Shown: positions 6,870-63,895 of the stretch, in pieces
Numbering within the stretch: position 1 is the first letter of the stretch
How the letters are laid out: each line of letters begins with the position of its first letter
NCBI GenBank assembly: GCA_020249285.1
Contig: JADCFX010000029.1
Coordinates: 29,121 to 93,120 of the forward strand
DNA length: 64,000 nucleotides
From: Roseomonas sp.
GTDB lineage: Bacteria; Pseudomonadota; Alphaproteobacteria; Acetobacterales; Acetobacteraceae
Direction of reading: 5' to 3'
The notes under the pieces: model-generated
Databases searched by the model: none
What the model saw: the letters and a program-made list of their open reading frames with translations, nothing else
What the model was told of the DNA's origin: nothing
Position numbers and translations under genes: made by a program

Positions 6870-7738
6870 TGCACATCACCATCGGCATCGCCACCCGTGG
6901 CAGGCCGGCCATTCTGGGGGGTGTCTTGCGCGATCTAGCGCGGCAGTCTCGCCCAGCGGATCGCATTCTGGTCTGCCATGTTTCGGCCGATGACATCACC
7001 GGGTGTGACACCATTCCCGGCGTGGACTTCATCACCGCCGCAGCCGGCCTGCCGCGCCAGCGCAACCGGATCCTGGATGAAGCGCGTGACAGCGATGTTG
7101 TGCTGTTTCTGGATGATGATTTCCTTTGCAATGCAAAGTTTCTTGCCGTGCTGGAAAGCTGTTTTGAAAAACATCCTGAGATGGTGGTCGCGACCGGCAC
7201 AGTGATCGCCGATGGCGCAAATGCGCCGGGCTATGATTTGGCCGAAGGCGCCGCGTTGCTCGCCGCCGATCCGGGTGTCGCGGATGCCTTTGCGGTGACC
7301 GAAGCTTTCAACGGCTATGGCTGCAACATGGCCTTTCGCATGGCTACCGTGCGCGCCCATGATATTCGCGTTGATGAACGGCTTCCGCTTTACGCCTGGT
7401 ATGAGGATATTGATGTGACGCGCCGGCTTGGTGCGCACGGGAAAATCCTTCGCCTTGCCGGTGCGCGCGGCGTGCATCTTGGCGCGAAGGCAGGGCGCGT
7501 GCCGGGCCTCAGGCTTGGTTATTCGCAGGTGGTGAACCCCATCTACCTTGCGATCAAAGGCTCCTTCCCATGGAGCCACGCCATCCCAAGTGCTGCGCGG
7601 CATTGCGCAAAGAACCTGCTGCGGTCTGCCTTTCCTGAGCCCTGGGCGGATCGCTGGGGCCGGTTTCGCGGCAATATGATTGGGCTTTGGGATGTGCTGC
7701 GCGGGCGCGTCACGCCGGAACGCATTCTGGATTTGTAG
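6866..7738 (+). CDS. Glycosyltransferase family 2
   Basis: GLPRQRN, LFLDDDF (DxD), GCNMAFR, WYEDID. Confidence 0.88.
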   Translation: MMHITIGIATRGRPAILGGVLRDLARQSRPADRILVCHVSADDITGCDTIPGVDFITAAAGLPRQRNRILDEARDSDVVLFLDDDFLCNAKFLAVLESCFEKHPEMVVATGTVIADGANAPGYDLAEGAALLAADPGVADAFAVTEAFNGYGCNMAFRMATVRAHDIRVDERLPLYAWYEDIDVTRRLGAHGKILRLAGARGVHLGAKAGRVPGLRLGYSQVVNPIYLAIKGSFPWSHAIPSAARHCAKNLLRSAFPEPWADRWGRFRGNMIGLWDVLRGRVTPERILDL

Positions 7739-7824
7739 GGCGCGCGCCCCGCGCATTTACCCCCTTTCCCTTCTGGCCAAGCCATAGGAACATCCCCTGA
7801 TCAATATCAGGAGGAAGCTCAGCC

Positions 7825-8241
7825 ATGAGCCTTGAACCAGGCCGCGCCCGGCCGGAACCGACGCCCGAAACCCGCCACTTCTGGGAGGGGCTGCGCCAAG
7901 GAAAGCTGTTGCTCCAGCGCTGCGGCGATACGGGCAAGCCCTATTTCCCGCCGCGCCCCTTCAGCCCCTATACCGGCACGCGCAATGTGGAGGTTTTTGA
8001 AGCATCAGGCCGCGGCACGCTGCATTCCTATGTGATCCATCATCGCCCAGTGCCGGGCTTCAAGCCGCCCTATGCGATTGCAGTGGTGGAACTCGAAGAA
8101 GGCCCGCGCATGATGACGAATATCGTGGAATGCCCGCAAACACCGGAAGCCTTGGTGCTGGATATGAAGCTGGAATTGGCGCCGACTAAGATGGATGACG
8201 ACATCACCCTGCCCCTTTTCCGCCCCGCGAAGGAGGGCTGA
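7825..8241 (+). CDS. Zn-ribbon/OB-fold protein (DUF35 family), partner of a thiolase-like enzyme
   Basis: PETRHFWEG...LLLQRC....YFPPR, SGRGTLHSY, PYAIAVVELEEGPRMMTNIV. Confidence 0.88.
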   Translation: MSLEPGRARPEPTPETRHFWEGLRQGKLLLQRCGDTGKPYFPPRPFSPYTGTRNVEVFEASGRGTLHSYVIHHRPVPGFKPPYAIAVVELEEGPRMMTNIVECPQTPEALVLDMKLELAPTKMDDDITLPLFRPAKEG

Positions 8242-8244
8242 GCC

Positions 8245-9393
8245 ATGATACGTCCCGGTGAAATTGCCATTGTTGGCGCGGCTGAAAGCACACGCATTGG
8301 CGCCGTGCCCGATATGGCGCAGATCATGCTGCATGCGGATGCGGCGCTGAATGCCATGGCGGATGCAGGCTTGAAGCCCGCCGATATTGATGGCGTTGCC
8401 TGTGTTGGCCCGATGATGCCGCAGCAGATCGCGCATTACCTTGGCATCACGCCGAAATGGGTGGATGGCACAGGTGTGGGCGGCTGTTCCTTCATGCTGC
8501 ATGTGCGCCATGCGGCCGCGGCCATCCATGCCGGCTATTGCAAGACCGTGCTGATCACGCATGGGGAAAGCGGCAAATCTCGCGTGAATGGCACGCCGCG
8601 CCCGGCGGAACCGCAAAGCCTGAATGGCCAATTCGAAGCGCCCTTCGGTCCCATGGGTCCGCCGACACTCTTCCCCATTCCGGTGCTGCGCTACATGAAG
8701 ACCTATGGCGTCACGCATGAACAAATGGCGCAGGTTGCGGTCGTGCAACGCGAATGGGCGGCGAAGAACCCACGCGCTGCCTTCAAGGACCCGATCACGA
8801 TTGATGATGTGCTGAACAGCAAAATGATCGCCTATCCCTTCCGGCTGCTGCAATGCTGCCTGGTAACGGATGGCGGCGGCGCGCTGATCCTCACCTCCTC
8901 CGATCGCGTCAAGGATTTCCCGACCAAGCCTTGCTATATCCTGGGCAGCGGCGAAAGCGTGGAAACCACCATGGTCAGCCAGATGGAGGATTTCACCTCA
9001 TCTCGCGCTTTCCGCGTAGCGGGGCCGGAAGCCTTCCGCATGGCTTGCATCAAGCACAGCGATGTGGATCATTTGATGATCTATGATGCCTTCGCGCATC
9101 TGCCCATGTATGGCTTGGAAGATCTTGGCTTCGTCAAGCGCGGTGAAGCCAAGGATTTCATCTGGGAACGCAATACCGCGCCGGGTGGGAGGCTTCCGAT
9201 CAATACCAATGGAGGCGGGCTTTCTTACACGCATACCGGCATGTATGGCATGTTTGCCTTGCAAGAAAGCGTGCGCCAAGTGCGCGGCACCGCACCGGCG
9301 CAAGTGCCCAATGTGAAAATCAGCGTGGCGCATGGCGTGGGCGGCATGTTCTCGGCCTCCGGCACGGTGGTCCTCAGCAATCAACGTCCCTGA
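8245..9393 (+). CDS. Thiolase-like protein (SCP2/Ltp2-type)
   Basis: GGCSF, CCLVTDGGGA, IYDAFA, NTNGGGLSYTH, C-terminal HGVGG; downstream of DUF35. Confidence 0.85.
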   Translation: MIRPGEIAIVGAAESTRIGAVPDMAQIMLHADAALNAMADAGLKPADIDGVACVGPMMPQQIAHYLGITPKWVDGTGVGGCSFMLHVRHAAAAIHAGYCKTVLITHGESGKSRVNGTPRPAEPQSLNGQFEAPFGPMGPPTLFPIPVLRYMKTYGVTHEQMAQVAVVQREWAAKNPRAAFKDPITIDDVLNSKMIAYPFRLLQCCLVTDGGGALILTSSDRVKDFPTKPCYILGSGESVETTMVSQMEDFTSSRAFRVAGPEAFRMACIKHSDVDHLMIYDAFAHLPMYGLEDLGFVKRGEAKDFIWERNTAPGGRLPINTNGGGLSYTHTGMYGMFALQESVRQVRGTAPAQVPNVKISVAHGVGGMFSASGTVVLSNQRP

Positions 9394-9399
9394 GAGAGG

Positions 9400-10923
9400 T
9401 TGAAGATGACGGAGGCGGTGAATTTACGCGAAAGGGTCAAGGAACCGCCTTCGGTATTGCTGGTGGAAAGCTATTATCGCGGGTCAGTCGCGCGTGCGCA
9501 GCATTATGTTTTTGCGCATGAGATGTGGGGGCATCTGGCCCATGGGCTGATGCTGGAACGCCAAGGTATCATTGCCCGCGATGCCATGGCGCAAATCCTG
9601 CCGGAAATCCTCGCCATGGCCGCTGCCGGGCCGGATACGGTGCCGGTGGATTATCGGCAGGAGGATTTGTATTCCTATGTCGAGAAACTCATCATCCAAA
9701 AACTTGGTCCCGATATTGGCGGGCGGCTGCATACTGGGCGTAGCCGGAATGATCTGAACGCAACCACCTGGCGCATGGCCTTGCGCACGGAATTGCTCGC
9801 GGTGCTGGGGCTGCTTGCTGATCTGCGGCAGACGATGCTGGCGCTGGCTGAGGAACACCTCGCCACCATCATGCCTGGCTATACGCATGGCCAACATGCG
9901 CAGCCGATCACCTTCGGCTATTGGTTGGCCTCGGCAGCGGATGCCTTGGCGCGCGATCATCAAAGGCTGATGGGTGCACTGGTGCATTGTGATCTTTGCC
10001 CCCTGGGCGCGGGCGCGCTTTCCACCACGGCCTTCCCGCTTGATCGTGCCTGGGTCGCTGATGCACTCGGCTTCGCTGCCCCGCTGGAGCTTGCCTATGA
10101 TGCGGTATCATCGCGGGATGATGCGCTGGAAGCCGCTTCGGCCATGGCGGTGATGATGACGCTGCTGTCGCGCCTTGCGACGGATCTGCAAAATTGGGGC
10201 AGTTGGGAGTATGGTTTTGTCGAATTGGCGGATCGTCATTCGGCAGTTTCCAGCATCATGCCGCAGAAGAAAAACCCTGCGGCACTGGAACATTTGAAGG
10301 CAGCGGCCGCCATGGTCCAGGGTGCGCATCACGCCGCCATGGCTTGCACCAAAAATACCGCCTTCGCCGATGTGAATGATGCGGTGACGGCGGTGAATGA
10401 ACCCGTGCTGGATGCTGCGCTTCGCAGTCGGCGCATCCTAGCCCTGTTTCAGGAAGTGATGCAGGACATCAGCCTGAACAAGGCCCGCATGGAAAATGCG
10501 GCGCGCGAAGGTTTTGGCTCGGCCACCGAATTGGCCGATGTGATTGTGCGCGAAACCGGGCTGAGTTTCCGCATGGCGCATAACATCGTCGCCATTGTCG
10601 TGCGCGACGCCTTGGCCGAAGGCCGCACGGCGGAAAGCATTTCAAGCGCGGCCTTGGATGAAGCCGCGCAGGTGCTATTCGGCAAGCCCTTGAATATTGC
10701 CGCACAAAAGCTCCGCACCGCGCTGGACCCAGCGCAAAACCTTGTCGGGCGCAGCCTGCTCGGTGGCCCGGCCCCAAAAGCCATGGCGCAGATGATCACA
10801 CGCCGTCGGGAAGCCCTGGCGCGGGATCGCCAAAGCATCTCCGCCATCGGCCAGCGCATTACGAATGCGCGTGCGACATGCTGGGCCGCGGCAAGCGGGC
10901 TTGTGGCGGAGGCGCGCCCATAG
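9400..10923 (+). CDS. Argininosuccinate lyase-like C-N lyase (aspartase/fumarase superfamily), divergent paralogue
   Basis: LHTGRSRNDL, MPGYTHGQHAQP, signature SSIMPQKKNP; the N-terminus differs from canonical ArgH. Confidence 0.8.
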   Translation: MKMTEAVNLRERVKEPPSVLLVESYYRGSVARAQHYVFAHEMWGHLAHGLMLERQGIIARDAMAQILPEILAMAAAGPDTVPVDYRQEDLYSYVEKLIIQKLGPDIGGRLHTGRSRNDLNATTWRMALRTELLAVLGLLADLRQTMLALAEEHLATIMPGYTHGQHAQPITFGYWLASAADALARDHQRLMGALVHCDLCPLGAGALSTTAFPLDRAWVADALGFAAPLELAYDAVSSRDDALEAASAMAVMMTLLSRLATDLQNWGSWEYGFVELADRHSAVSSIMPQKKNPAALEHLKAAAAMVQGAHHAAMACTKNTAFADVNDAVTAVNEPVLDAALRSRRILALFQEVMQDISLNKARMENAAREGFGSATELADVIVRETGLSFRMAHNIVAIVVRDALAEGRTAESISSAALDEAAQVLFGKPLNIAAQKLRTALDPAQNLVGRSLLGGPAPKAMAQMITRRREALARDRQSISAIGQRITNARATCWAAASGLVAEARP

Positions 10924-11003
10924 CCGTGCTACGCTGGGCTATGTTATTCACATCAGCAAAGCGCGCGGCCATAATGGTGCAACGCGAGAACCGGGAGGAA
11001 GAA

Positions 11004-11969
11004 ATGAAACTTACACGCCGCGTCGTGCTCACCGCCGCCGCTGGGCTCTTGTCAGCACCCGCCATCGCGCAATCCGGCTTTCCCAATCGCCCCATTCGCC
11101 TGATCGTGCCTTGGCCGCCCGGCGGTTCCACCGATGGCCAATTGCGCGCCTTGGCCGAGCCGGCATCGCGCTTTCTTGGGCAGCAGGTCATCATCGAAAA
11201 TCGCGGCGGGGCCAGCGGCACATTGGGTGCGCAGATGATGGCGCAAGAACAGCGCGGCGATGGCTATCTGGTTGGTCAATTGCCGATCACCACCTTCCGC
11301 TTCCCTATGATGACCAGCCGCCCCACCTGGGACCCGATGAGGGACTTCACCTATATCATTCACCTCACGGGCTATCTTTTCGGCGTGGTGGTGAAGGCCG
11401 ATAGCCCTTGGAAGAATTGGGAAGAGTTCCTGGCCTATGCCAAGGCCAATCCCGGCAAGGTCGCCTATGGGTCACCTGGTGTTGGCACCACGCTGCACAT
11501 CACGATGGAACGCATCGCGGCGGAACGTGGTATTGAATTCCTGCATGTGCCCTTCCGGGGCGGCGCCGATAACGCGCAATCGCTACTCAGTGGGCAGACC
11601 CAGGCGATGGTTGATTCAACCTCCTGGGCGCCCTTGGTGGATGGCGGGCAATTCCGCCTGCTTTGCACCTGGGGCGAACAACGCGCCAAGCGCTACCCGG
11701 ATGCGCCGACGCTGGTTGAAAGTGGCATCAACATTGTCTCAACTTCACCCTATGGCATTGCCGCGCCCAAGGGCGTTGATCCCGGCATTGTCAAAGCGCT
11801 GCATGATGGCTTCAAGCAGGCGCTTTATGATCCGGTGCATACCACCGCGCTGGAACGCTTCGATATGCCGCTGATCTATAAAAGCAGTGAGGATTACCGC
11901 GCTTCGGTGGCGAAAATCATCGAAGAGGAAGGGGCCGTCATCCGCCGCCTCAACCTCCGCATCAACTGA
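11004..11969 (+). CDS. Bug/TctC tripartite tricarboxylate transporter substrate-binding protein
   Basis: Tat-like LTRRVVL leader, FPNRPIRLIVPWPPGGSTD, IENRGGASG, HVPFRGG; GGAGG before ATG 11004. Confidence 0.92.
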   Translation: MKLTRRVVLTAAAGLLSAPAIAQSGFPNRPIRLIVPWPPGGSTDGQLRALAEPASRFLGQQVIIENRGGASGTLGAQMMAQEQRGDGYLVGQLPITTFRFPMMTSRPTWDPMRDFTYIIHLTGYLFGVVVKADSPWKNWEEFLAYAKANPGKVAYGSPGVGTTLHITMERIAAERGIEFLHVPFRGGADNAQSLLSGQTQAMVDSTSWAPLVDGGQFRLLCTWGEQRAKRYPDAPTLVESGINIVSTSPYGIAAPKGVDPGIVKALHDGFKQALYDPVHTTALERFDMPLIYKSSEDYRASVAKIIEEEGAVIRRLNLRIN

Positions 11970-11971
11970 AG

Positions 11972-13021
11972 CTAAACAGGCCGCAAAGTATCCAGCGCAA
12001 GGGAAACATTGCGCTGGATCGTCCCATCCTCATCGTGCAGCGCAAGCCCAACGCGCCCTTGCGGCCAATCAATTTCCACCGTGCCGAAATTGACGCGCGG
12101 GTAAAGCTCACCCAGCCGATTGGGGCCTTGTTCCCGCGCATTGACGAATTGCCGGTTGATCCCGCTTGAGGTGATTTCAGTCAGCGGATAGGGCGTGCCC
12201 TGGCTTTCACGATAAAGCGCGCCGATGTGCCGATCTCCGGAAAGAAACACCACGCCCCGCGCCTTGGTGCTTGCGATCAGATCATAAAGCCGCTGGCGTT
12301 CGCGCGGGAAATTGCCCCATCTTTCCCAGCCATGGCCTTCCACCACGACCTGGATGGAAGAAACAATCAATCGTAGCTCCGCAGGTTCTTGCAGGCATTG
12401 GCCAAGCCAATCCCATTGCGCTTCGCCCAATATGGTCTTTGCCGGATCATCATCGGGCAAAAAGCGTTCCCGTCCGGGCGCGCCGCGCTGATCGGTGATG
12501 CGCAGCGGCGCACGAAACCAGCGCGTATCCAATAAAATGATCTGCACGCGCTGTTCTGCCGGCCCCAGCGTCAGATGGTGATAAAGCCCTTCTCGGCGCC
12601 GCCGCACATCATCAGCCGGTACGCGCCAGAATTCCAGAAACGCGTCCTTCGCTTCCTGCTTGAAGGGGTTTTCAACGCCGCCATCATTCACGCCAAAATC
12701 ATGATCATCCCAGATCGCAGTGTGATGCTGTTGGCCTGCGATGAAGCCCATGAATTCCTGATGTTGCTGCGCCCGGGCATAGGCTTCCTGCAATTCGGCC
12801 AAATCATGCCGTCGCACCCCGCCATAAACATTATCGCCGGCGAAGATGAAGAATTCCGGCTGCCAGGCACGCACCGCGCGCCAAATCGGCTGCGGCAGCT
12901 TCTCATCAGCACAGGTTCCGAAGGCAATGCGGCTGATCGCCGCGCCCTGTGCCGCCAGCGGCGCTGCAACCGGTGCCAAGGCCGCCGCGGCCAAGCCACG
13001 CCGCGTGAGCATGGGCTTCAA
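11972..13021 (-). CDS. phoD: PhoD-family alkaline phosphatase/phosphodiesterase, Tat-exported
   Basis: LTRRGL leader, GDNVYG, WDDHDFG, LLDTR, FLSGDRH. Confidence 0.85.
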   Translation of the reverse strand: MKPMLTRRGLAAAALAPVAAPLAAQGAAISRIAFGTCADEKLPQPIWRAVRAWQPEFFIFAGDNVYGGVRRHDLAELQEAYARAQQHQEFMGFIAGQQHHTAIWDDHDFGVNDGGVENPFKQEAKDAFLEFWRVPADDVRRRREGLYHHLTLGPAEQRVQIILLDTRWFRAPLRITDQRGAPGRERFLPDDDPAKTILGEAQWDWLGQCLQEPAELRLIVSSIQVVVEGHGWERWGNFPRERQRLYDLIASTKARGVVFLSGDRHIGALYRESQGTPYPLTEITSSGINRQFVNAREQGPNRLGELYPRVNFGTVEIDWPQGRVGLALHDEDGTIQRNVSLALDTLRPV

Positions 13022-14223
13022 ACCTGCGGCACTTCAACCTTGCCGGTATGCAGCTTCAGCCGCGACATCTCCGGCGCATCCTGCCCCGCATCGCGGAAGG
13101 CCTGCTTCAGCGCCGCCATATTCGGCGCGAAGATGCTTTCGCGATTTTCGCTAACCCAATCGCGCGATTGCTGCGGCATCACGAGCGAGCCCTGGAAGCG
13201 CGGCATTACCCAACGCGCAAAAAGCTCAAAGGAACGCATGGTCGCTTCGCGGTCCGCCCATTCATGGGCGCGGAACAACACGCCCCCTGCCCCGCCATCG
13301 GTGAAACTCAGCAGCCGTTCAATCCCCGCCGCCACAGTTTCCGGTGATCCCACCAGCGTTGACCCCATCGCCAACCCATCGCGCAAAGGATCTTCTGAAC
13401 GCATCGGTGGCCGGCCCAGGGTTTCGCTGAAATAGGTCAGCGTTTCCAAAGCCTCACCATGGCGCACATCACGCAACGCGCGTTCATCATCCTCAGCGCA
13501 ATGCAGATTGACCACCAGGCGCCAATTGCGCCTTTCCATCTTCTGGCCATGCTTGGCGGCTTCCGCTTCCGCCATCTGCCATTGCCCAGCGAGTGATTTC
13601 GGCCCGCCCGGCAGCCCGGCACCCAGCGATATCAGCCCAAGCCCATATTTCGCCGCCGCTAGCGCGCCCGAAGGCGTGGTGGAAGACGCAACCGCGATCG
13701 GGAAACGCGGTTCCGAATAAGGCGCCAGATGCAGCCGCGCCTCACGCAAGGTGAACCAATCGGTCTCCATGGTCACAGGTTCTTCGCAGGCCAAAAGCCG
13801 CGTAATCGCGTTCAGCGATTCATCCATGCGCCGGCGTTGATGCGCGGCATCAATGCCCATCATGTATGCGTCAGATACCAGCGCCCCAGGTCCGCAGCCC
13901 AGCATCACGCGCCCGCGCGTCATATGGTCCAACTGCACAAAGCGCTGCGCGACCAAAAGCGGGTGGTGATACGGCAGGCTGGTCACGCCTGATCCAAGTT
14001 TGATGTGCTTGGTGCGTTCTGCCGCCGCCGCAATCATGATTTCGGGGCTGGCGATGGTTTCCCAGCCGGCGGAATGATGTTCGCCAATCCAGGCCTCATC
14101 AAAGCCCAGATGGTCCAGCCATTCGATCAATTCCAAATCGCGCGTGAGCCCAAGCGTTGGATTGTCGCCCACGCGATGAAACGGGGCCAGGAAAATGCCG
14201 AAGCGAAGGCGGCGAGGCAGCAT
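13018..14223 (-). CDS. LLM-class flavin-dependent monooxygenase (limonene monooxygenase LimB-like)
   Basis: RFGIFLAPFH, EAWIGEHHSAGWE, IKLGSGVTSLPYHHP, LDHMTRGR; GGAG upstream of ATG 14223 (alternative start 14241). Confidence 0.88.
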   Translation of the reverse strand: MLPRRLRFGIFLAPFHRVGDNPTLGLTRDLELIEWLDHLGFDEAWIGEHHSAGWETIASPEIMIAAAAERTKHIKLGSGVTSLPYHHPLLVAQRFVQLDHMTRGRVMLGCGPGALVSDAYMMGIDAAHQRRRMDESLNAITRLLACEEPVTMETDWFTLREARLHLAPYSEPRFPIAVASSTTPSGALAAAKYGLGLISLGAGLPGGPKSLAGQWQMAEAEAAKHGQKMERRNWRLVVNLHCAEDDERALRDVRHGEALETLTYFSETLGRPPMRSEDPLRDGLAMGSTLVGSPETVAAGIERLLSFTDGGAGGVLFRAHEWADREATMRSFELFARWVMPRFQGSLVMPQQSRDWVSENRESIFAPNMAALKQAFRDAGQDAPEMSRLKLHTGKVEVPQV

Positions 14224-14237
14224 GGGTGGCTTCTCCA

Positions 14238-14954
14238 TCACATGGAAGGCGGATCGCCCGCCAGGAATTCCTCGCCGCCATAATCGGCCGCGCGAGGCAG
14301 GCGCAGGATGCGCCCTTCAGGGGTCATGCCCACAAGTTCGGGCAATACGGTTACCACAGGCTTGGCGCGCGCGGCGGCAAAGGCTTCCGCCACACTGTCA
14401 TGCCGGGCGAGCTTGGTCAGGTTCATCCGCGTCGGGAACACCAGCTTCTTGGTGCCGGCAATGCCTTCCGCCAGCGCATCAGCGGGCCTGATCCAGATAC
14501 TATCCACCGCTTCATGCCCATCATGCAAAGCGGCCTGATCTTCCGGCGCGGCGGCCAGGAAGAAATGCGTATCAAAACGCTTGGGCACTTCCACCGGCGT
14601 GATCCAATGCGCGAAATGCCCGAGTGATGATACCGCCGGCATCAGGCGGCGTTCGGCCAGCATGGCGGCGAATTCACCCTCGGCTTCCGGCGTGCTGCCT
14701 TCCTCGGCGAGTAAGACGCCACATTCTTCCCAGGTTTCGCGAATGGCCGCCACGCGAAAGGCGCCATGGGCATCGCCGCCGGCCAATGTCTTGTCAGCCG
14801 CTTCCACGCGCCCACCGGGAAACACCAAGGCGCCTGAGGCAAAATCAATCTGCCGGTGCCGCACCACCATAAAAACTTCCATGCCCCGCGGCCCATCACG
14901 CAGCAGCAGAACGGTGGAAGCCGGGCGGGCGGGGGCGGTTGGTGTGTCACTCAT
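14238..14954 (-). CDS. NUDIX hydrolase (NUDT19-like)
   Basis: RPASTVLLLRD, FASGALVFPGGRVE...AAIRETWEECG (Nudix box), HWITP...KRFDTHFF. Confidence 0.88.
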   Translation of the reverse strand: MSDTPTAPARPASTVLLLRDGPRGMEVFMVVRHRQIDFASGALVFPGGRVEAADKTLAGGDAHGAFRVAAIRETWEECGVLLAEEGSTPEAEGEFAAMLAERRLMPAVSSLGHFAHWITPVEVPKRFDTHFFLAAAPEDQAALHDGHEAVDSIWIRPADALAEGIAGTKKLVFPTRMNLTKLARHDSVAEAFAAARAKPVVTVLPELVGMTPEGRILRLPRAADYGGEEFLAGDPPSM

Positions 14955-15000
14955 ACCTGCATTGCAGCCCGCCCAGCGCTCCACCGCAAGGTGCCCCGCT

Positions 15001-15333
15001 TCATCCTTTGGCCAGGCGGCGCAAATGCTGGGCGGCCGCGCGGCTGGCAGCGGCTTCAATGTCACGAAAACCCAGCACCAGCGCTTCCCCCAGGCGAGTG
15101 AGCTTGGCGCCTCCGCCCCCAGCGCCGCCGGTGATGCGCTCCACCACCGGGGAAGAAAAGGTCTGGTTCAGTTCCGCGACCAATTCCCAGGCCCGGCGGT
15201 AGGACATGCCAAGCGACCGTGCGGCGGCACTGATCGAACCGGCCTCGGCAATCGCCTCCAGCAGGGTGATCTTGCCGGGGCCCACGCGTCCATCGGCAAA
15301 ATCAATGCGCAGCCAAAGTGCCGCTTCGGTCAT
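15001..15333 (-). CDS. modE: ModE-like winged-helix regulator, DNA-binding domain only (no TOBE)
   Basis: GPGKITLLEAIAEAGSISAAARSLGMSYRRAW..V..LN, GGGGA.LT; 110 aa; overlaps the modC stop. Confidence 0.82.
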   Translation of the reverse strand: MTEAALWLRIDFADGRVGPGKITLLEAIAEAGSISAAARSLGMSYRRAWELVAELNQTFSSPVVERITGGAGGGGAKLTRLGEALVLGFRDIEAAASRAAAQHLRRLAKG

Positions 15334-16430
15334 GGTCGAGGCATCACATGCAGGGCATCGCGCAGCAGGGAAACGCTGCATGCCTCCCCTGGCGCCAGAC
15401 CATTGCGCTGCGCGGCATGGCGCGGCAGGGCGAAGGTCAATTGTCGGCCCTCGGGGTCGCCAACATCCAGGGTCACGCGCATTTCCTCGCCCATCGGCAG
15501 CAGCGCGATGATGGTGCCGGACACCGGGTTTTCCCTTTCGCCCGCCGAGGGGCGGCCACGGCGATGCAGCACCACGCCGCCCGCGCCAATCAGCCAATCC
15601 ACGGCGGTGCCAGGCGGCAGGCTTGGCATGGGGGCCGCTTCCAGCACCTGATCACCCCAGCGGAGCCTGGTGAGGTCATCCTCATGCGCCAGGATCACGC
15701 CGGTAAAAAGATTGCGCAGATCAAGCAGTCGCGCGACTTCGGCGGAGGCCGGGCGCGCCAGCATTTCTGCGGGTGGCGCGGTTTGCAGCCCCCTGCCCCG
15801 ATGCAGCAACAGCATGCGGTCCGCGAGTGACGCAGCCTCATCCAAATCATGCGTCACCAGGATGATCGGGATGGAAAGCCCCTGGCGCAAATTGGCCAAT
15901 TCCACCTGCAAGCGCCGACGCGTGGCGCGGTCCACGGCGCTGAAGGGTTCATCCAGCAGCAGCACGGCAGGGTCGCGCGCCAAAGCCCGCGCGACCGCCA
16001 CGCGCTGTTGTTGCCCGCCGGAAAGCTCGGCCGGGCGGCGCTGCTCAAGCCCTGCCAGATGCACGCGCGCCAAAAGGGCGGCGGCGCGGGGGGCGCGCTC
16101 AGCAGCCGGCACATGGCCCATCGCGGCCATCACATTGGCAAGCGCGGTCATATGCGGAAAAAGCGCGTAATCCTGAAACACCAGCCCCACGCGGCGCCGA
16201 TGCGCCGGCAAGTCAAGTGCTCGGCTGGTGTCGAGCCATGCCTCGCCGCCGCAGATCACATGGCCGCTTTCGGGATGATGCAGCCCGGCAATGGCGCGCA
16301 GCGTGGTGGATTTGCCGGCGCCTGACGGGCCGATGATGGCCAGCAACTCCCCCGGCGCGCAGTCTAGCGCAAGGTCAAGCGCGATCGGCGCTGTGGCCTT
16401 CAGGCGCAGGCTAAGACCCGCATTAGCCAT
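15330..16430 (-). CDS. modC: Molybdate ABC transporter ATPase
   Basis: GPSGAGKS, LSGGQQQR, LLLDEPFS, C-terminal TOBE-like region; follows modB. Confidence 0.9.
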   Translation of the reverse strand: MANAGLSLRLKATAPIALDLALDCAPGELLAIIGPSGAGKSTTLRAIAGLHHPESGHVICGGEAWLDTSRALDLPAHRRRVGLVFQDYALFPHMTALANVMAAMGHVPAAERAPRAAALLARVHLAGLEQRRPAELSGGQQQRVAVARALARDPAVLLLDEPFSAVDRATRRRLQVELANLRQGLSIPIILVTHDLDEAASLADRMLLLHRGRGLQTAPPAEMLARPASAEVARLLDLRNLFTGVILAHEDDLTRLRWGDQVLEAAPMPSLPPGTAVDWLIGAGGVVLHRRGRPSAGERENPVSGTIIALLPMGEEMRVTLDVGDPEGRQLTFALPRHAAQRNGLAPGEACSVSLLRDALHVMPRP

Positions 16431-57256: not shown

Positions 57257-57282
57257 GACATGAAACGCAAAGGCCACACCCC

Positions 57283-58305
57283 ATGATGCTGCGTGTTGAA
57301 AATGAACGGCGCTTTTCCCTTGGCCATGCAAGCATCACCATATCTGGCCTACAAGTGCCAGCTGACGGCGGCTTTCGGATCATGCGCGAAGGCTATGCCG
57401 CGGCCAATCTTGGGCGGCGCGGCTGGCAGGTTCAGGAAGAAAAGCTGACTCCGGTGGAAATCCGCCAGGAAGGCGCGGATACTGTTCTGGTGCTTGGGCC
57501 AAGGCTAACGCGGCATCTTGAACCGGGCCCGCTGGTGTTTCTGTTACCTGCTGCCGGTCTGGAAACAAGCCTGTTTTGGCCGGACGATATTGATGTTTTT
57601 GACGGTGATTTGCCGCCTGAGCCGATCATGCCGCGAGAGGCGCACGTGGCGCCACCACCACCATCCAGTACCACCGCGCCGCCACCGCCAGCTTCTCAAC
57701 CCATGCCATCGCCGCGCGAAGAAGTGGCGGCGAAGCCAGCCGAGGAAGGCAAATCCCGCACACCGCTACTGGCCGGCATCGGGTTATTGCTGCTGACAGC
57801 GGTTGGCGGCGCTGCCTGGTGGTTCACCGCCGCACCACCAGCGCCCGCACCACAACCAGCACCCATCGCAACGCCTGCACCGCCCCCACCACCACCCGCC
57901 CAAGTGACGGCGGAGCGCCCCTGGCTTGAACGCAGCGATGGCATGGCGCTGCGCGATCTGGTACAATCCGCACCGGATGTCGCTTCGATCCATGCCGCCG
58001 CGCTCAGGCGTCAGGCTGCCGGGCGGCATGATGATGCGCTTGTGCTGTTTGAGGAAGCAGGCGAACGCGGCCATGCGCCAGCACTCACCGCCGTGGCGCG
58101 GCTTTACGACCCGATTGGTTTTGTCGCCGGCCGCCCGTTCCGCGCGCCCGACCCGCGTGCGGCGGCACGATATTATCGCGATGCTTTGCAAAAGGGTGAT
58201 GCGGCAGCAGAGGCACCGCGCGCTGCGCTCAGGACTTGGCTGGAAGAACAGGCGCGCGGAGGCAACGGCACAGCGGAAACTGCGCTTAAGGAGTTCTGGC
58301 CATGA
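57283..58305 (+). CDS. Bitopic membrane protein: cytoplasmic N-domain, Pro-rich linker, TM, periplasmic Sel1/TPR-like repeats
   Basis: TM segment LLAGIGLLLLTAVGGAAWWF flanked by Pro-rich tracts; ALVLFEEAGERGHAPALTAVARLYDP and AARYYRDALQKGD are Sel1-like. Confidence 0.75.
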   Translation: MMLRVENERRFSLGHASITISGLQVPADGGFRIMREGYAAANLGRRGWQVQEEKLTPVEIRQEGADTVLVLGPRLTRHLEPGPLVFLLPAAGLETSLFWPDDIDVFDGDLPPEPIMPREAHVAPPPPSSTTAPPPPASQPMPSPREEVAAKPAEEGKSRTPLLAGIGLLLLTAVGGAAWWFTAAPPAPAPQPAPIATPAPPPPPPAQVTAERPWLERSDGMALRDLVQSAPDVASIHAAALRRQAAGRHDDALVLFEEAGERGHAPALTAVARLYDPIGFVAGRPFRAPDPRAAARYYRDALQKGDAAAEAPRAALRTWLEEQARGGNGTAETALKEFWP

Positions 58306-60251
58306 TGTTGCGTCGCGCGCTTTTGGCACTGGTGCTTGGCCTGTTCTGCGTCGGGCCCGTGGCGGAAGTCAGCGCACAGCAAGCCGCGCGGCAACCGCTG
58401 CTGATGGAAGGGCGCGCCACGCTGTTTCAACGCGTGATCCTGCGCCCCGGCGCACGCCTGACCGAACGGCCCGATGCGAATGCGCCTTCCCAGCCAACGC
58501 CCGGTTTTGGTGTTTTCTATGTCTATGCGCGCCAGGGCAGCGGCACCGATGGCTGGCTTGAAATCGGCGCGGCACAGGATGGCCGCACGCAAGGCTGGGT
58601 CCGCGCTGAACGCACCATGGATTGGAAGCAAACCATGGTGCTGGCTTTCAATAACCCTGCCGGGCGCGACCGCGCCATGTTCTTCCGAGACGCCGAAACA
58701 CCGCGCGCCCTTTGGCTGAATACGCGCGGCGGCGCGGCAGAGGCTATGCGGTTGCGCGAAGCCGCACGGGCCAATACCGATGGGCCGGTGATTGCGCTGG
58801 AACCCGAGAACTTCATTGACATCACAAGGCAATTCTACCTGCTGCCCATTCTATCTGCGCAGCGCGTGGAAAATGAAAGCGCGCATGAAGCGCGTTTGCT
58901 GGAAGTGGTTTCTGCCCCCGCGCAGCAGGCCCCTCCCCCACCTGCTGATCCGGATGCGCTGCGCAATTATCGCGGCTCGGTGGTGTTTGTTGTGGATACC
59001 ACCATCAGCATGGGTCCCTACATTGACCGCACGCGTGAAGCGCTGAAACGCGTGGTGGATCGCATTCGCGATACCGCAGTGCGTGACAATTTCCGCTTCG
59101 GCATGGTGGCCTTCCGCGACCATCTGGGCGGCAATCCCAGGCTTGAATATGTCACGCGCATGGTGTCCCTGCCTGATCTGGCTGAGGCTTCGGATGCGAT
59201 TTTGCCGCGGCTTTCGCAACTCACCGAAGCGCGCGAAAGCAATGAAGGCTTTGATGAGGATTCACTGGCCGGCATCAAGCTCGCTTTGGATGAAGTGCCC
59301 TGGCAGCAATATGGCGGGCGTTTCGTTATTCTGATCACGGATGCCGGCGCGCGGGATGCGAAGGACCCGCGCAACCAAACCCAGATGGGCCCGGAAGAAA
59401 TGCGCCAATTGGCGCAATCGGAGGCGAAGCAGGTCGCGATCTACGCCATTCATCTGAAAACGCCGGAAGGGCGCAACAACCACGCGCGGGCGGAACGGCA
59501 ATACCGGGAACTCACGCGCTTTGGCGCGGCGGGGGAACTTTATTACCCGATCAATGAGGGCAATCTGGGCCAATTCGGACAAACAGTGGACGCGCTGACG
59601 GATGCGTTGCTCGCGCAAGTCGCTGCAGCAGTTGGGCGGCCCATCGCCGGCATCAGGGCGCCTCAAGGTGCGGCTGAACGACGCATCGCCGAACAAGCTG
59701 AAGTTGTCGGCACCGCCATGCGGCTTTCCTATCTGGGGCGCGCAACGCAGCAGACGGCGCCTGATGTGGTACGAAGCTTCGTGCTGGACCAGGAACTCAA
59801 CCCGGCCGAACCCAGGCCAGAACGGCGGCCCTTGGATGTGCGCGTGCTGCTGACGCGCAATCAGCTTTCCGATCTGGCGACTACGCTGCGCAGCATTATC
59901 CAGGCTCAGGCGGCAGCGCGGCTTTCGCCTGAGACTTTCTTTGAACGTGTGCGCGGTGCGGCAGCGGCGGCGGCGCGTGATCCTCGGCGCATGGCGGAAT
60001 TCCAACGCCTGGGCGGCGCCTTTGGCGAATTCCTACAGGACCTGCCGTATCAAAGCCAGATCATGGAATTCACCCAAGAAGAATGGAACAGCATGGGGGC
60101 TGGGCGGCGCACCGAAATCGTCAATGCGCTGGAGGCGAAGCTCAGACTTTATGAGGAATTCAATCGCCAGCCATCGCTCTGGGTCAGTTTCGATGGCGGG
60201 CGCAATCCCGGTGAGGCGATGTATCCCGTGCCCATTGATGCGCTGCCCTGA
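58302..60251 (+). CDS. Exported vWA-domain protein resembling the PpkA periplasmic region (no kinase domain)
   Basis: Signal peptide; LLMEGRATLFQRVILRPGA; WKQTMVLAFNNPAGRDR; MIDAS-like VVDTTISMGPYI; ILITDAG; DVRVLLTRNQLSDL; ends YPVPIDALP. Confidence 0.8.
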   Translation: MMLRRALLALVLGLFCVGPVAEVSAQQAARQPLLMEGRATLFQRVILRPGARLTERPDANAPSQPTPGFGVFYVYARQGSGTDGWLEIGAAQDGRTQGWVRAERTMDWKQTMVLAFNNPAGRDRAMFFRDAETPRALWLNTRGGAAEAMRLREAARANTDGPVIALEPENFIDITRQFYLLPILSAQRVENESAHEARLLEVVSAPAQQAPPPPADPDALRNYRGSVVFVVDTTISMGPYIDRTREALKRVVDRIRDTAVRDNFRFGMVAFRDHLGGNPRLEYVTRMVSLPDLAEASDAILPRLSQLTEARESNEGFDEDSLAGIKLALDEVPWQQYGGRFVILITDAGARDAKDPRNQTQMGPEEMRQLAQSEAKQVAIYAIHLKTPEGRNNHARAERQYRELTRFGAAGELYYPINEGNLGQFGQTVDALTDALLAQVAAAVGRPIAGIRAPQGAAERRIAEQAEVVGTAMRLSYLGRATQQTAPDVVRSFVLDQELNPAEPRPERRPLDVRVLLTRNQLSDLATTLRSIIQAQAAARLSPETFFERVRGAAAAAARDPRRMAEFQRLGGAFGEFLQDLPYQSQIMEFTQEEWNSMGAGRRTEIVNALEAKLRLYEEFNRQPSLWVSFDGGRNPGEAMYPVPIDALP

Positions 60252-60259
60252 GGGCGCGC

Positions 60260-61012
60260 ATGAACCACTCCGCGCCGACCCTGCTGCTGCAAGACGTCCT
60301 CATCCGCCATCAGGCGCCAGGCGGTGCGCTGGGGTTTGAGCTTGCCATTGAGGAATTCAGCATCACGCGCGGTGAGGCCTTGGCGCTGGTCGGGCCTTCT
60401 GGCTCCGGCAAATCCACGCTGCTTGATCTACTGGCCTTGGCGCGTCGGCCATCAAGTACAGGGCGATTTTTGCTGACACCACGTACAGGCAAGGCGATAG
60501 ACCTTGGCGCGGTTTGGCACGCGGGGGATGACAATAGCCTGACAGCCATTCGCGCAACGCATTTCGGCTATGTTTTGCAAACGGGTGGGCTGCTGCCATT
60601 CCTGTCTGTCAGGCGCAATATCGCGCTTGGCCAGGCGGTGCTTGGCCGGCCTGATCCCGCGCATATCGAAGCCTTGGCGGCGCGGCTTGAGATTGCGTCG
60701 TTGCTCGAGAGAATGCCGGCAACCCTTTCCGTTGGGCAAAGGCAACGTGTAGCCATTGCTCGCGCCTTGGCACATCGCCCAGAAATTCTGCTGGCGGATG
60801 AACCCACCGCCAGCGTTCACCCGGCCTTGGCGGACACAATATTGGCGCTACTGATTGAACAGGCGCGCGAACAGGATACGGCGCTGATCCTGGCGACGCA
60901 TGACCCGGACCGCGCCGCGCGCCATGGCTTCGCTATTCTGCCGATCCGCACGGAAGCAGGGAATGCCGGCGCTGGTCGTTCCTGGTTGAATCGGGCGCGA
61001 GCAGCGGCATGA
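60260..61012 (+). CDS. ABC ATPase, LolD/MacB type (TagT-like)
   Basis: GPSGSGKSTLL, FGYVLQTGGLLPFL, LSVGQRQRVAIARALAH.P.ILLADEPTA, ATHD. Confidence 0.88.
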   Translation: MNHSAPTLLLQDVLIRHQAPGGALGFELAIEEFSITRGEALALVGPSGSGKSTLLDLLALARRPSSTGRFLLTPRTGKAIDLGAVWHAGDDNSLTAIRATHFGYVLQTGGLLPFLSVRRNIALGQAVLGRPDPAHIEALAARLEIASLLERMPATLSVGQRQRVAIARALAHRPEILLADEPTASVHPALADTILALLIEQAREQDTALILATHDPDRAARHGFAILPIRTEAGNAGAGRSWLNRARAAA

Positions 61013-62232
61013 GTGAGAAATCCTCTCATACCGGGCTGCTGGCAGGTCTTTCATTGCGTGATCTTTTGCATGAACGCACGCTGGCACTTTGTTCGCTGAT
61101 TGGTTTGGCGGCGGTACTGGCGCCACTGATTGTACTGTTTGGTCTGAAGCAGGGTGTGATTGATGGGCTGCGTGCAGAGCTGATTGAAAATCCGCGCAGC
61201 CGCATGGTGGTGAATGCCGCCAACCGCAATTTCGATACGGATTTTCTGACGCGCCTGGCCGCGCGGCCCGATATCGCCTTTGTCATTCCGCGCACGCGCA
61301 GCCTGAATACCGAAGCACGGTTTGAGAACCCGGCGCGCCCCGGCACCGTGCTGCGCGCGGAATTGCTGGCCACCGCCGCGGGTGATCCCCTGCTGCATGG
61401 CCTGCCCAGCGTTGCGCCGAACCAAATCATCCCAAGCGCTTCCTTCGCCGCACGGTTGGATTTGCAGCCAGGCATGAATGTGACGCTGCGCGCCCTTCGC
61501 GGTGATGCCGGCGCGCGAGAGGTACTGAGTTTTCCCGTCACCATCGCTGCCATCGCACCGCCGAGCGCCTTTGGCCGCGACGGCGTTTTCGTTGACGTCA
61601 GGACTCTGCTGCTGGTGGATCTCTTCACCGACGGCGCGCTGCCAGCCACAGCAACGCCTGCCGATGTCACGGATGATCCCTCACGCATCTTTGCCGGTTT
61701 TCGCGCCCATGCGCGGCGCCTGGAAGATGTGACGCGCATTGACCATGACCTGCGGCGCGATGGGGTGGAGGTTGAAACGCTGGCGGAACAGGTGGAAGGC
61801 TTGCTCAGCCTTGATCGTAGCCTCACGCTGCTTTTTGCCTTGCTCGCCGGGCTGGGTGGGATTGGGTATCTCGTCTCACTCGGGGTTGGGCTCTATGCCA
61901 ATGTGGAACGCAAGCAGCGTGATCTGTCGCTATTGCGCCTGATCGGGCTGTCGCGGCGCGATCTGGTGGTGTTTCCGCTGATCCAGGCGCTGATCATCGC
62001 GGGCGCGGGGGCGGCGCTCGCAAGCCTGCTCGCCTTGGCAGTAGCGGGTTTGGTCAATCGCCTGCCACTTGCGGGTACCAATGCCGCTGGCGCACGGGCC
62101 ATTTGTGTCATTGAAGCGCAGCATCTGTTACTGGCATTTTTGGTGAGCCTTTTAGGCGCGGCAATATCCGCGGCTTTTGCCGGGTATCGCGCCGCCCGGA
62201 TTGAACCTGCGAAGGGGCTTCGCGATGCGTAA
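61009..62232 (+). CDS. FtsX/MacB-type ABC permease (TagS-like)
   Basis: One N-terminal TM (AAVLAPLIVLFGLK.G), large periplasmic domain, three C-terminal TMs; ANVERKQRDLSLLRLIG. Confidence 0.85.
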   Translation: MSEKSSHTGLLAGLSLRDLLHERTLALCSLIGLAAVLAPLIVLFGLKQGVIDGLRAELIENPRSRMVVNAANRNFDTDFLTRLAARPDIAFVIPRTRSLNTEARFENPARPGTVLRAELLATAAGDPLLHGLPSVAPNQIIPSASFAARLDLQPGMNVTLRALRGDAGAREVLSFPVTIAAIAPPSAFGRDGVFVDVRTLLLVDLFTDGALPATATPADVTDDPSRIFAGFRAHARRLEDVTRIDHDLRRDGVEVETLAEQVEGLLSLDRSLTLLFALLAGLGGIGYLVSLGVGLYANVERKQRDLSLLRLIGLSRRDLVVFPLIQALIIAGAGAALASLLALAVAGLVNRLPLAGTNAAGARAICVIEAQHLLLAFLVSLLGAAISAAFAGYRAARIEPAKGLRDA

Positions 62233-63895
62233 GCTGTTTCTTGCTGCCATGATCCTGTTCGCGCCAGCCGTGAACGCGCAAGAAAGATGGCCAGCGGAAT
62301 TCTGGAATCCGAAACCGCTTGCAGATGATCTGATCCTGCCCATGCCCTGCGGTGGCGCCATGGTGTTTCGCCCAGTGCCAACACCTTTGGGTCAAGGACT
62401 ATTGGCGGATCGGCCCGCCATGCTCGGCCAGGCGGATGCGGAAACAAATTACAGCGAATTTCTGCGCCAAAGCTTCATCGCCGGCCCTTTCCGAGGCGCC
62501 GATGCTGCCGCACCGCCGCGCTACTATATCGGCAAGTATGAAGCGACGCGTGATCAATACGCTGCCGTCACCAGCGAAACCTGCCCAAGCCCTGCCGCCG
62601 CCGGGCGCCTGCCCCAGGCCGATATCGCTTGGCATGAGGCGATTGCCTTCACCATGCGCTATTCCGCCTGGCTTACGCGCAATGCGCGTGACGCCTTGCC
62701 AATGCGCGATGATGCGCGCGCCTTTGTGCGCCTGCCGACAGAGGATGAATGGGAATTCGCCGCACGCGGTGGCTCGGCGGTTGCAGAAGCGGATTTCGGA
62801 GCGCGCGTTTTTCCAATGTCTGAGGGAATGCAGCGTTATGTCTGGTTTCAGGGCACGCGATCCTCAGGCGGTCGCGTGCGCCCCATCGGCATGCTGGAAC
62901 CCAATCCGCTTGGGCTTTTTGATATTCTCGGCAATGTCGCGGAATGGGTTCTGGAACCCTATCGGCTCAATCGCGTGGGCCGCCCGCACGGGCAGGCAGG
63001 TGGCATGGTGGCACGCGGTGGGGATTTCCTGACGCCGGAAGATCAAATCCGCTCAAGCCTCCGCGTTGAACTGCCGCCGCTTGATCGCAATGGTGAAGCG
63101 CTCAGACTGCGCAGCCTTGGCTTTCGCCCGGTGCTTGCCCTGGTGGCGACCAGCAGCGACCAGCGCCCAGCACAATTACGCACGGCGTTTGAAGCGGAAG
63201 CGCAGTCCCGCGGCAATGCCAGTGAAGACCCAGCACGGCTTCTGGAAGTTCTGAAAAACGATACGCCGGACCCAGCCCTACGCCAGGGGATTGATCGCGT
63301 GGGCGCGGCGCTCCGCACCGCCCAGCGGGAACGCAATGATCAAGAAATGCAGGCGATCCAAAGCCAAATCGCCGCCGCCGCGCAGATCGGTCGGCAAATC
63401 CTGTTGGCGGAAGGGTTTGGCGAATTGCTCAGCGCCTTTGCACGGGTGCAGGCGGAAACCGTGCAGGCGCAACGCACCTTGGCGGAAGATCAGGGCCGCA
63501 TCGCCGCCGCGACGCAGGCCGAAGTGCAAGCGGCGCTCCGCCGCCAACAGGAACGCACGCAGCAAATCACCACCACCATGGCGCGCATTGAAGCAGCGTT
63601 GCGCAGCCAGGCAGAAGGCCAACCCGCGCGCGCCCAGGAATTGGCCGCGAGCTATCTGCGCACCGTGCTTTCGGTAGGCCGCAGCGTGGACAGGCTGCGC
63701 ATAGCGGATGCGGCCAATGTGGTTCAGCAGGAATTGCAGGCGCAGAATGTGCAATATTTGCCGGAACTCGCGCGCATCGCCGCGCGGCATATGGTGGCCG
63801 TCAGCAGTGGCAATCCGCCAGGCCGGGAACAGGCGATGGCTGATCTTACGGCGGTGTTGCGGCCTGCGGCGCCTGCCCCGCCCGCGCGGCGGTAG
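62225..63895 (+). CDS. SUMF1/FGE-sulfatase-domain exported protein (TagR-like) with a helical C-terminal extension
   Basis: Signal peptide MRKLFLAAMILFAPAVNA; WNPKPLADDLILPMPCGGAMVFR; YYIGKYE.T; RLPTEDEWEFAARGG; PNPLGLFDILGNVAEW; GFRPV. Confidence 0.85.
   Translation: MRKLFLAAMILFAPAVNAQERWPAEFWNPKPLADDLILPMPCGGAMVFRPVPTPLGQGLLADRPAMLGQADAETNYSEFLRQSFIAGPFRGADAAAPPRYYIGKYEATRDQYAAVTSETCPSPAAAGRLPQADIAWHEAIAFTMRYSAWLTRNARDALPMRDDARAFVRLPTEDEWEFAARGGSAVAEADFGARVFPMSEGMQRYVWFQGTRSSGGRVRPIGMLEPNPLGLFDILGNVAEWVLEPYRLNRVGRPHGQAGGMVARGGDFLTPEDQIRSSLRVELPPLDRNGEALRLRSLGFRPVLALVATSSDQRPAQLRTAFEAEAQSRGNASEDPARLLEVLKNDTPDPALRQGIDRVGAALRTAQRERNDQEMQAIQSQIAAAAQIGRQILLAEGFGELLSAFARVQAETVQAQRTLAEDQGRIAAATQAEVQAALRRQQERTQQITTTMARIEAALRSQAEGQPARAQELAASYLRTVLSVGRSVDRLRIADAANVVQQELQAQNVQYLPELARIAARHMVAVSSGNPPGREQAMADLTAVLRPAAPAPPARR

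Follow-up and report, generated by a model that had tools for sequence, protein, structure and literature searches.

SrfB and SrfC are widespread proteins without an accepted function that continue to be labelled as virulence factors. SrfA, which is encoded with them, consists of an N-terminal domain, a disordered linker, a transmembrane (TM) segment and periplasmic domains, and was modelled with AlphaFold3 as a bitopic platform that binds SrfB and then SrfC (bioRxiv 10.64898/2026.09.18.752743). In the sole recent structural study of these genes, the neighbouring ATP-binding cassette (ABC), vWA and FGE genes were interpreted as an export module of the Lol type, and a further gene, the subject of the present work, was not mentioned. 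This gene was analyzed in a 64,000-nucleotide stretch of Roseomonas sp. DNA (GenBank assembly GCA_020249285.1, contig JADCFX010000029.1, positions 29,121 to 93,120 of the forward strand), referred to as the window in the following. It is located at 57283..58305 and encodes a bitopic protein of the inner membrane with a length of 340 aa, which belongs to an unnamed family. We use the shorthand X for this protein and X-N for its N-terminal β-sandwich. All window features described here lie on the plus strand. The second described system of relevance is PpkA (TagE), the receptor kinase of the threonine phosphorylation pathway of the Pseudomonas aeruginosa H1 type VI secretion system (T6SS). Activation of PpkA has been proposed to occur via a TagQ/TagR-driven dimerisation of its periplasmic domain, and residues 127-359 of TagR belong to the FGE-sulfatase superfamily (PMC13713981). 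TagS has been assigned to COG4591 (permease) and TagT to COG1136 (ATPase) (PMC13584744).

Based on its architecture and topology, its synteny with srfC, its translational coupling to the adjoining genes, the homology of the downstream gene cassette, the existence of kinase fusions, a modular periplasmic side and a genome free of such kinases, X is probably a transmembrane adaptor of the PpkA type that is split, lacks the kinase and carries a cytoplasmic domain not described before. The more specific proposal, that X forms the membrane-spanning part of a split, kinase-less envelope sensor of the PpkA/TagRST type that is wired to SrfB/SrfC, stands at about even chances in our judgement, the recruitment of SrfB/SrfC by X being what we infer from synteny. 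Neither the X gene nor the homology of the srf-linked cassette to TagRST was mentioned in the literature retrieved by our search, whose coverage was incomplete, so that an earlier description elsewhere is possible.

Architecture of X and its tie to srfC

The full-length structure of X was modelled with AlphaFold2 using an alignment of 107 sequences of diverse homologs, which resulted in a mean pLDDT (the per-residue model confidence) of 87.5. X-N comprises residues 1-110 (57283..57612) and is predicted as a cytoplasmic β-sandwich of nine strands with a pLDDT of about 96; modelled by itself, it reached a pLDDT of 95.8 and a pTM (the predicted overall fold score) of 0.87. It is followed by a proline-rich cytoplasmic linker of residues 111-161 (57613..57765; pLDDT 49-83), the length of which varies in the family, by a single TM helix of about residues 162-183 (LLAGIGLLLLTAVGGAAWWFTA; 57766..57831), and by a proline-rich periplasmic linker of residues 184-212 (57832..57918), which was delineated from sequence, alignment and model. 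Apart from the helix at residues 165-180, the entire proline-rich stretch of residues 111-212 was modelled with low confidence. The C-terminal part, residues 213-340 (57919..58302), forms a Sel1-like periplasmic repeat domain of paired helices with a pLDDT of about 97. Conserved columns of the family alignment are found in both globular domains and include the motifs R-EGY...NLGP-GWQ, GP...RHLE-G and WPD in X-N.

The original prediction, made from the sequence alone, had described X as a cytoplasmic β-rich domain of roughly 110 aa and of no recognised kind, followed by a linker, a TM segment, a second linker and Sel1-like repeats. The model, a hydropathy scan and the Sel1 matches described below agree with this layout in each of its parts. 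The prediction had further placed the end of the X gene in an ATGA overlap with the following vWA gene (58302-60251), and the open reading frame coordinates bear this out, the X gene sharing four nucleotides with the start of the vWA gene.

X-N could not be related to any structure in the PDB. With both the full model and the lone domain as queries, Foldseek returned no PDB structure at E<1e-3, and its top matches to X-N were immunoglobulin V domains (E 0.011, TM-score about 0.35), a resemblance that on the basis of the model we regard as generic sandwich likeness only; the assignment of X-N to a known fold was therefore rejected. A search of the PDB with the family profile likewise gave no sequence match in the X-N region. 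The C-terminal domain is the only part of X that falls in a known family. The family profile matched the Sel1-repeat proteins 6ork, 6deh and 8sxq in the PDB with E values of 7e-13 to 1e-11, these matches being confined to profile positions 237-331, and the C-domain model was assigned by Foldseek with a probability of 1.0 to LpnE (6deh), LceB (8sxq) and 3rjv, which are Sel1/TPR proteins. Thus, by profile and by Foldseek, X has both the sequence and the fold of Sel1-type repeats (PF08238). The single X sequence had no Pfam match, as its Sel1 signal lies under the Pfam threshold, and X matched no Pfam, NCBIfam or PADLOC model. LpnE, LceB and MotX share the repeat type with the C-terminal 125 residues of X, but these proteins are soluble or secreted and consist of repeats throughout, whereas X is bitopic and combines a short Sel1 ectodomain with a separate cytoplasmic domain.

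A C-terminal end of the type (D/E)-F/Y-W-P is conserved in the alphaproteobacterial subfamily, and 49 of the 107 aligned members terminate in DFWP, EFWP, DYWP, ESWP, ECWP or YWPP. The idea that a (D/E)FWP tail serves universally as a ligand of the vWA metal site was dropped, since X of the cassette-bearing genomes G136, G317, G031 and G199 has other endings.

With a 19-residue Kyte-Doolittle mean above 1.6 as criterion, X contains one TM segment (residues 162-180), and exactly one such segment was found in 97 of the 107 family members. When these 97 proteins were pooled, 267 lysine and arginine residues were counted within 15 residues before the TM segment and 107 within the same distance after it. 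X has no signal peptide, as a β-strand begins already at residue 3, and homologs exist in which a Ser/Thr kinase, a cytoplasmic domain, is fused N-terminally to X-N. The absent signal peptide, the positive-inside bias and these N-side kinase fusions mean that an N-in/C-out topology of X is well supported by indicators from sequence and model, in line with the cytoplasmic placement of the N-domain that had been predicted.

A database search identified 247 close homologs of X. The closest ones come from Roseomonas metagenome-assembled genomes and are annotated as hypothetical, and once as "sel1 repeat family protein". In a full-library HMMER search, the family comprised 595 clusters (50% identity) at E<=1e-3 and 208 clusters at E<=1e-10, most of which are 320-410 aa long and span the entire query.

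The genomic context of the family was surveyed with its profile in 401 evenly drawn Pseudomonadota genomes, 14 of which contain srfC. All profile matches that include X-N fall in srfC genomes and are located immediately 3' of srfC (G000, G060, G136, G317, G224, G031 and G064). In G199, X is split over two contig ends, one of which abuts srfC and the other the vWA gene. Outside the family f42, that is, in the non-enterobacterial genomes, X was present at all eight srfC loci of the sample. It was found at none of the six f42 loci, which consist of srfA-srfB-srfC only and encode SrfC proteins of 710-839 aa. The vWA-ABC-FtsX-FGE genes follow X at six of the eight X loci. At the locus of G224 nothing further is found behind X, and in G064 PAN-domain proteins and a GH3 hydrolase are encoded in place of the vWA cassette. 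As X is present at each of the eight non-enterobacterial srfC loci, two of them without the cassette, it is tied first to srfC and not to the vWA cassette, and its periplasmic neighbours vary. X of the window has all traits of this unnamed family: X-N, one TM segment, a Sel1-like C-domain and a position directly after srfC.

Two observations were made along with the survey. The assembly break in G199 (end of L072, start of L073) falls within the proline-rich linker of X and divides the srf operon, and breaks of this kind could conceal X in draft genomes. In G064 (L028, 4253-9480), four PAN/apple-domain proteins and a GH3 glycosidase are encoded, and one of the PAN proteins also has an X-like Sel1 region.

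Kinase-bearing orthologs and the PpkA/TagRST cassette

The downstream cassette starts with the vWA gene at 58302..60251, whose product has a signal-peptide-like N-terminus and vWA Pfam matches. Over about 620 aa (residues 17/27-649), this protein shares 37-39% identity (E about 1e-117 to 1e-123) with the C-terminal parts of open reading frames which are about 1,017-1,189 aa long and occur in five genomes without srfC. One of these frames, in G087, has an N-terminal Pkinase domain and is part of a T6SS locus which encodes Fha, TssK, TssL, TssM, TagF, a PP2C phosphatase, the kinase and an FGE-sulfatase protein. By its sequence and surroundings, the G087 frame is PpkA, flanked by PppA (the PP2C phosphatase) and a TagR-like FGE protein. 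The vWA gene of the window is followed by genes for an ABC ATPase (60260-61012), an FtsX-type permease (61009-62232) and a periplasmic FGE-sulfatase-domain protein (62177..63895), which were assigned by Pfam and are TagT-, TagS- and TagR-like, respectively. Since the vWA protein is homologous to PpkA and the ABC, FtsX and FGE domains match, the srf-linked cassette is a homolog of the PpkA ectodomain, here in the form of a free, secreted protein, together with TagT, TagS and TagR.

X itself differs from PpkA in a defined way. Both are single-pass proteins with a cytoplasmic N-terminus that are encoded beside TagT-, TagS- and TagR-like genes (60260-63895 in the case of X). PpkA, however, carries a kinase and a fused ectodomain, whereas X contains no Pkinase domain in a scan that detects it in the X homologs P0223 and P0164 as well as in G087 PpkA, and its PpkA-type vWA ectodomain is not part of the same polypeptide but a separate secreted protein encoded by the next gene. 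Conversely, X possesses the β-sandwich head and the Sel1 domain, neither of which was found in T6SS PpkA, where only the proline-rich/TM region matches the X profile; the assumption that X-N or Sel1 is a part of T6SS PpkA was thus not borne out by the profile comparison. Finally, the output of PpkA is the T6SS, while the genes linked to X are srfB and srfC. PP2C and FHA domains, which were looked for at the srf operon, are not encoded there, so that the operon has neither a PppA phosphatase nor Fha. Across the 94.6%-complete assembly of the source genome, neither Pkinase nor TssK gave a match. In view of this, transmission through X in this genome is predicted to involve neither a Hanks kinase nor a T6SS.

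A direct connection between the two systems is provided by orthologs in which a kinase and X are joined. In P0223 and P0164 a Pkinase domain precedes an X-like sequence, and when the X part of P0223 was used as the query, 16 clusters were returned, all of them with Pkinase and 607-694 aa in length, the named ones coming from Competibacteraceae. Behind the kinase these orthologs carry the full X architecture (X profile positions 4-349), and they are encoded between srfC and vWA-ABC-FtsX-FGE (loci L038, L074 and L075). In complete Competibacteraceae loci the FGE gene is followed by genes for a Gly-zipper protein and a trypsin-domain protein. The kinase of the orthologs is 52-55% identical to that of G087 PpkA over 250-262 residues, and the catalytic motifs expected of a kinase can be recognised in its sequence. 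In a tree of the X region, the root of which is unresolved, the kinase-bearing orthologs form one clade with an SH-aLRT branch support of 98, and one gain of the kinase is equally possible as one retention.

These orthologs decide what remains of the earlier proposal that X replaces the kinase-TM module of PpkA with a non-kinase head in the place of the kinase. As to position and split-off ectodomain, the homology of the vWA protein and the kinase-bearing orthologs at the same site speak for it. As the orthologs retain X-N between kinase and TM segment, and as T6SS PpkA lacks X-N, the head is not a substitute for the kinase, and this part of the proposal has to be given up.

The periplasmic side of X is modular as well, as illustrated by a fusion to FGE and by the PAN-domain proteins of G064. 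The fusion protein, P0233, joins X-N and TM segment to an FGE domain and is encoded on a 3.5-kb contig without srf genes.

P0164 deviates from the other kinase-bearing homologs in that its kinase is followed by a β-rich region that matches the X-N profile at its end only, and then by a TM segment and an X-type C-domain ending in DYWP. On a 7-kb metagenome contig it adjoins two FHA proteins, a MotA/ExbB protein and a PP2C phosphatase, a set that resembles PpkA/PppA/Fha, and T6SS genes are not visible on these 7 kb. The cassette occurs in a third setting at the locus L089 (contig C35 of G022, 6519-15683), where a homolog of the PpkA ectodomain (30% identity) is encoded together with ABC, FtsX and FGE proteins, an S41 peptidase and a Gly-zipper protein resembling a lipoprotein. 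Neither srfBC nor a kinase gene is part of this locus, which has a divergently oriented gene for a Sel1/MORN protein. From these settings, the sensor cassette has the appearance of a mobile module with different outputs in different places.

The srfC-X junction and the remaining operon

Upstream of X, the window encodes on the same strand an M23 peptidase (50732-51547), SrfB (PF07520; 51640..54615) and SrfC (PF10139; 54626..57256), the latter in its long form with the P-loop GPSQQGKS. Wherever srfC has this long form, X directly follows it. The SrfC proteins linked to X share an insert of ~85 residues (about 442-527 in SrfC of the window, 55949-56206) which is absent from SrfC of the X-less enterobacterial operons, a contrast that is confounded by phylogeny as every X-less locus comes from one family. 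On this basis, the insert is a possible candidate for a region where X docks. At the other end of the operon, the listed reading frame of the FGE protein begins at a TTG inside the overlap with the permease gene (window 62177-62230), and its signal-peptide-like sequence opens at an internal methionine (MRKLFLAAMILFAPAVNAQE). The true start of the FGE gene is probably located about 15 codons downstream of this TTG. PADLOC gave no match for X, SrfB, SrfC, the vWA protein, the FGE protein or SrfA, and a known defence system was rejected on these grounds.

The srfC stop and the X start are bridged by a mini-ORF of eight codons (MKRKGHTP; 57260..57286), in the frame of srfC, which had been suspected to couple the translation of the two genes. 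The mini-ORF exists, but alignment with the related loci L071 and L069 does not support a conserved role. The current stop codon of srfC is part of a lineage-specific insertion of 27 nucleotides (57239..57265), the exact placement of which is ambiguous owing to a flanking CGCAA(G/A)GG repeat. These 27 nucleotides are present in L071, a relative with 86% identity, and missing in L069, whose X is 80% identical and whose srfC reads through ...LRKGVTP to a TGA overlapping the ATG of X. Because srfC without the insertion continues through the same tail and the insertion brings in the new stop, the mini-ORF is a lineage-specific remnant of the C-terminal tail that SrfC had originally. An overlap of 4 nucleotides between srfC and X is seen in relatives. 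The srfC stop overlaps the X ATG in L069, L029, L030 and L031, and by a single base in Competibacteraceae L074, while a gap of 3-10 nucleotides separates the genes in L026 and L027; the junction of L028 could not be read from the reading frame coordinates. None of the junctions of L069, L029, L030, L031, L074, L026 and L027 offers space for a mini-ORF. Termination-reinitiation through the mini-ORF is possible, but a conserved translational coupler was rejected.

Proposed function of X and alternative explanations

In the mechanism that we propose, the periplasmic Sel1 domain of X would bind the free vWA ectodomain, either alone or in complex with a TagR-like protein; its partners in G064 would be other periplasmic proteins. 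Perturbation of the envelope would cluster the periplasmic proteins, akin to the action of TagQ/TagR on PpkA, and thereby gather the cytoplasmic X-N heads. The gathered heads would then dock or activate SrfC, and via SrfC also SrfB, at that membrane site, so that the output of X would be recruitment rather than phosphorylation. SrfA-type bitopic proteins, encoded elsewhere in the genome, would be the clients handled by SrfB/SrfC. That X-N acts in this way, as an undescribed cytoplasmic output domain nucleating SrfC (a dynamin-like GTPase) and SrfB (an Hsp70-like ATPase) where a PpkA/TagRST-type sensor detects envelope damage, is a tentative proposal, which we consider clearly less probable than its opposite.

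Several points weigh against this mechanism or parts of it. No relative of X-N is known that would indicate a binding function, and, given the fusion of X-N and TM segment to FGE on a short contig without an srf gene, X-N is not strictly tied to SrfC. A TagQ-like lipoprotein is not encoded in the srf operon. X is kept in G224 and G064, which lack the cassette, so that its core role does not depend on the vWA-type sensor, and the enterobacterial srfABC operons work without X. Lastly, it is SrfA and not X that has been modelled as the platform for SrfB/SrfC; X may not touch these proteins at all, and it is not the sole candidate for a membrane platform in the srf system.

Among the alternatives, a passive role survives best, although at about one chance in five we still hold it to be unlikely. 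X would then be an anchor or scaffold whose Sel1 domain tethers periplasmic partners beside ABC/FtsX, with X-N only stabilising or oligomerising the protein and no signal passing to SrfB/SrfC. Sel1 repeats are indeed general protein-binding scaffolds, X has no catalytic or known signalling domain, and it stays constant while its periplasmic neighbours differ by species. A mere anchor would, however, leave unexplained that X-N is conserved as well as the Sel1 domain and retained in the kinase fusions, and that the X gene is tied to srfC rather than to the periplasmic genes; a cytoplasmic output is suggested by the position of X and by the orthologs with a fused kinase.

Somewhat less probable still is that X is itself a client similar to SrfA, whose head is grasped by the Hsp70-like/dynamin-like pair in order to move, release or expose the periplasmic domain. 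SrfA (NF040486) and X have the same layout of a cytoplasmic head, a disordered proline-rich linker (in X on both sides of the TM segment), a TM helix and a periplasmic domain. Each is found in srf operons, the two sharing one operon in G031, G136, G317 and G199, and each presumably encounters SrfB/SrfC at the membrane; for SrfA, binding of the heads to SrfB/SrfC has been modelled (bioRxiv 10.64898/2026.09.18.752743). The heads are nevertheless unrelated. X has no NF040486 match, and hhalign of X-N against SrfA gave a probability of 0.09, so that X does not contain the SrfA N-terminal domain, which is marked by DWY and PVLTFWGF motifs. X as a divergent SrfA was rejected, and for a client, too, sequence or profile similarity to SrfA-N is lacking. 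Moreover, X lies downstream of srfC at all loci examined, whereas SrfA is encoded upstream of srfB, and X is single-copy at a fixed operon position, while SrfA genes are duplicated and mobile. The periplasmic part of SrfA is variable (lipocalin, protease and others), in contrast to the conserved Sel1 scaffold of X, which is not effector-like, and kinase fusions suit a regulator better than a cargo. SrfA and X thus co-occur, and neither substitutes for the other.

In the window no srfA is found upstream of srfB. Three tandem SrfA-family genes are located on another contig of the same genome, unlinked to srfBC (L004, contig C1 of G000, 6185-11274), with NF040486 E values of 2.7e-24, 2e-10 and 7e-9. 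They encode proteins of 588 aa (with a periplasmic trypsin-like protease), 424 aa and 409 aa and are followed by a gene for a Gly-zipper_YMGG protein. As the srf operon of Competibacteraceae L074 carries Gly-zipper and trypsin-domain genes right behind its FGE gene, this distribution suggests that the distant SrfA locus is part of the same system as the srf operon.

That X is a negative regulator, which in the manner of the TagF and PppA brakes encoded beside PpkA in the G087 T6SS locus would hold SrfC inactive at the membrane until the sensor releases it, is improbable. The tight translational coupling to srfC would suit a stoichiometric pairing of this kind, but X shows no similarity to TagF or PP2C.

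Overall, X and its neighbours link the srf system to the sensor of envelope damage that has been studied best in bacteria. The proposed wiring, in which the sensor would signal via X to SrfC/SrfB and from there to SrfA clients, is concrete and testable. X-N defines an uncharacterised domain family of 595 clusters with a confident structural model and no structural relative in the PDB. If X-N is indeed an output domain, the arrangement described here would be a phosphorylation-free counterpart to the T6SS tit-for-tat circuit, and the SrfABC 'toxin/virulence factor' would be recast as a localised machine for the response to envelope damage or for effector release.

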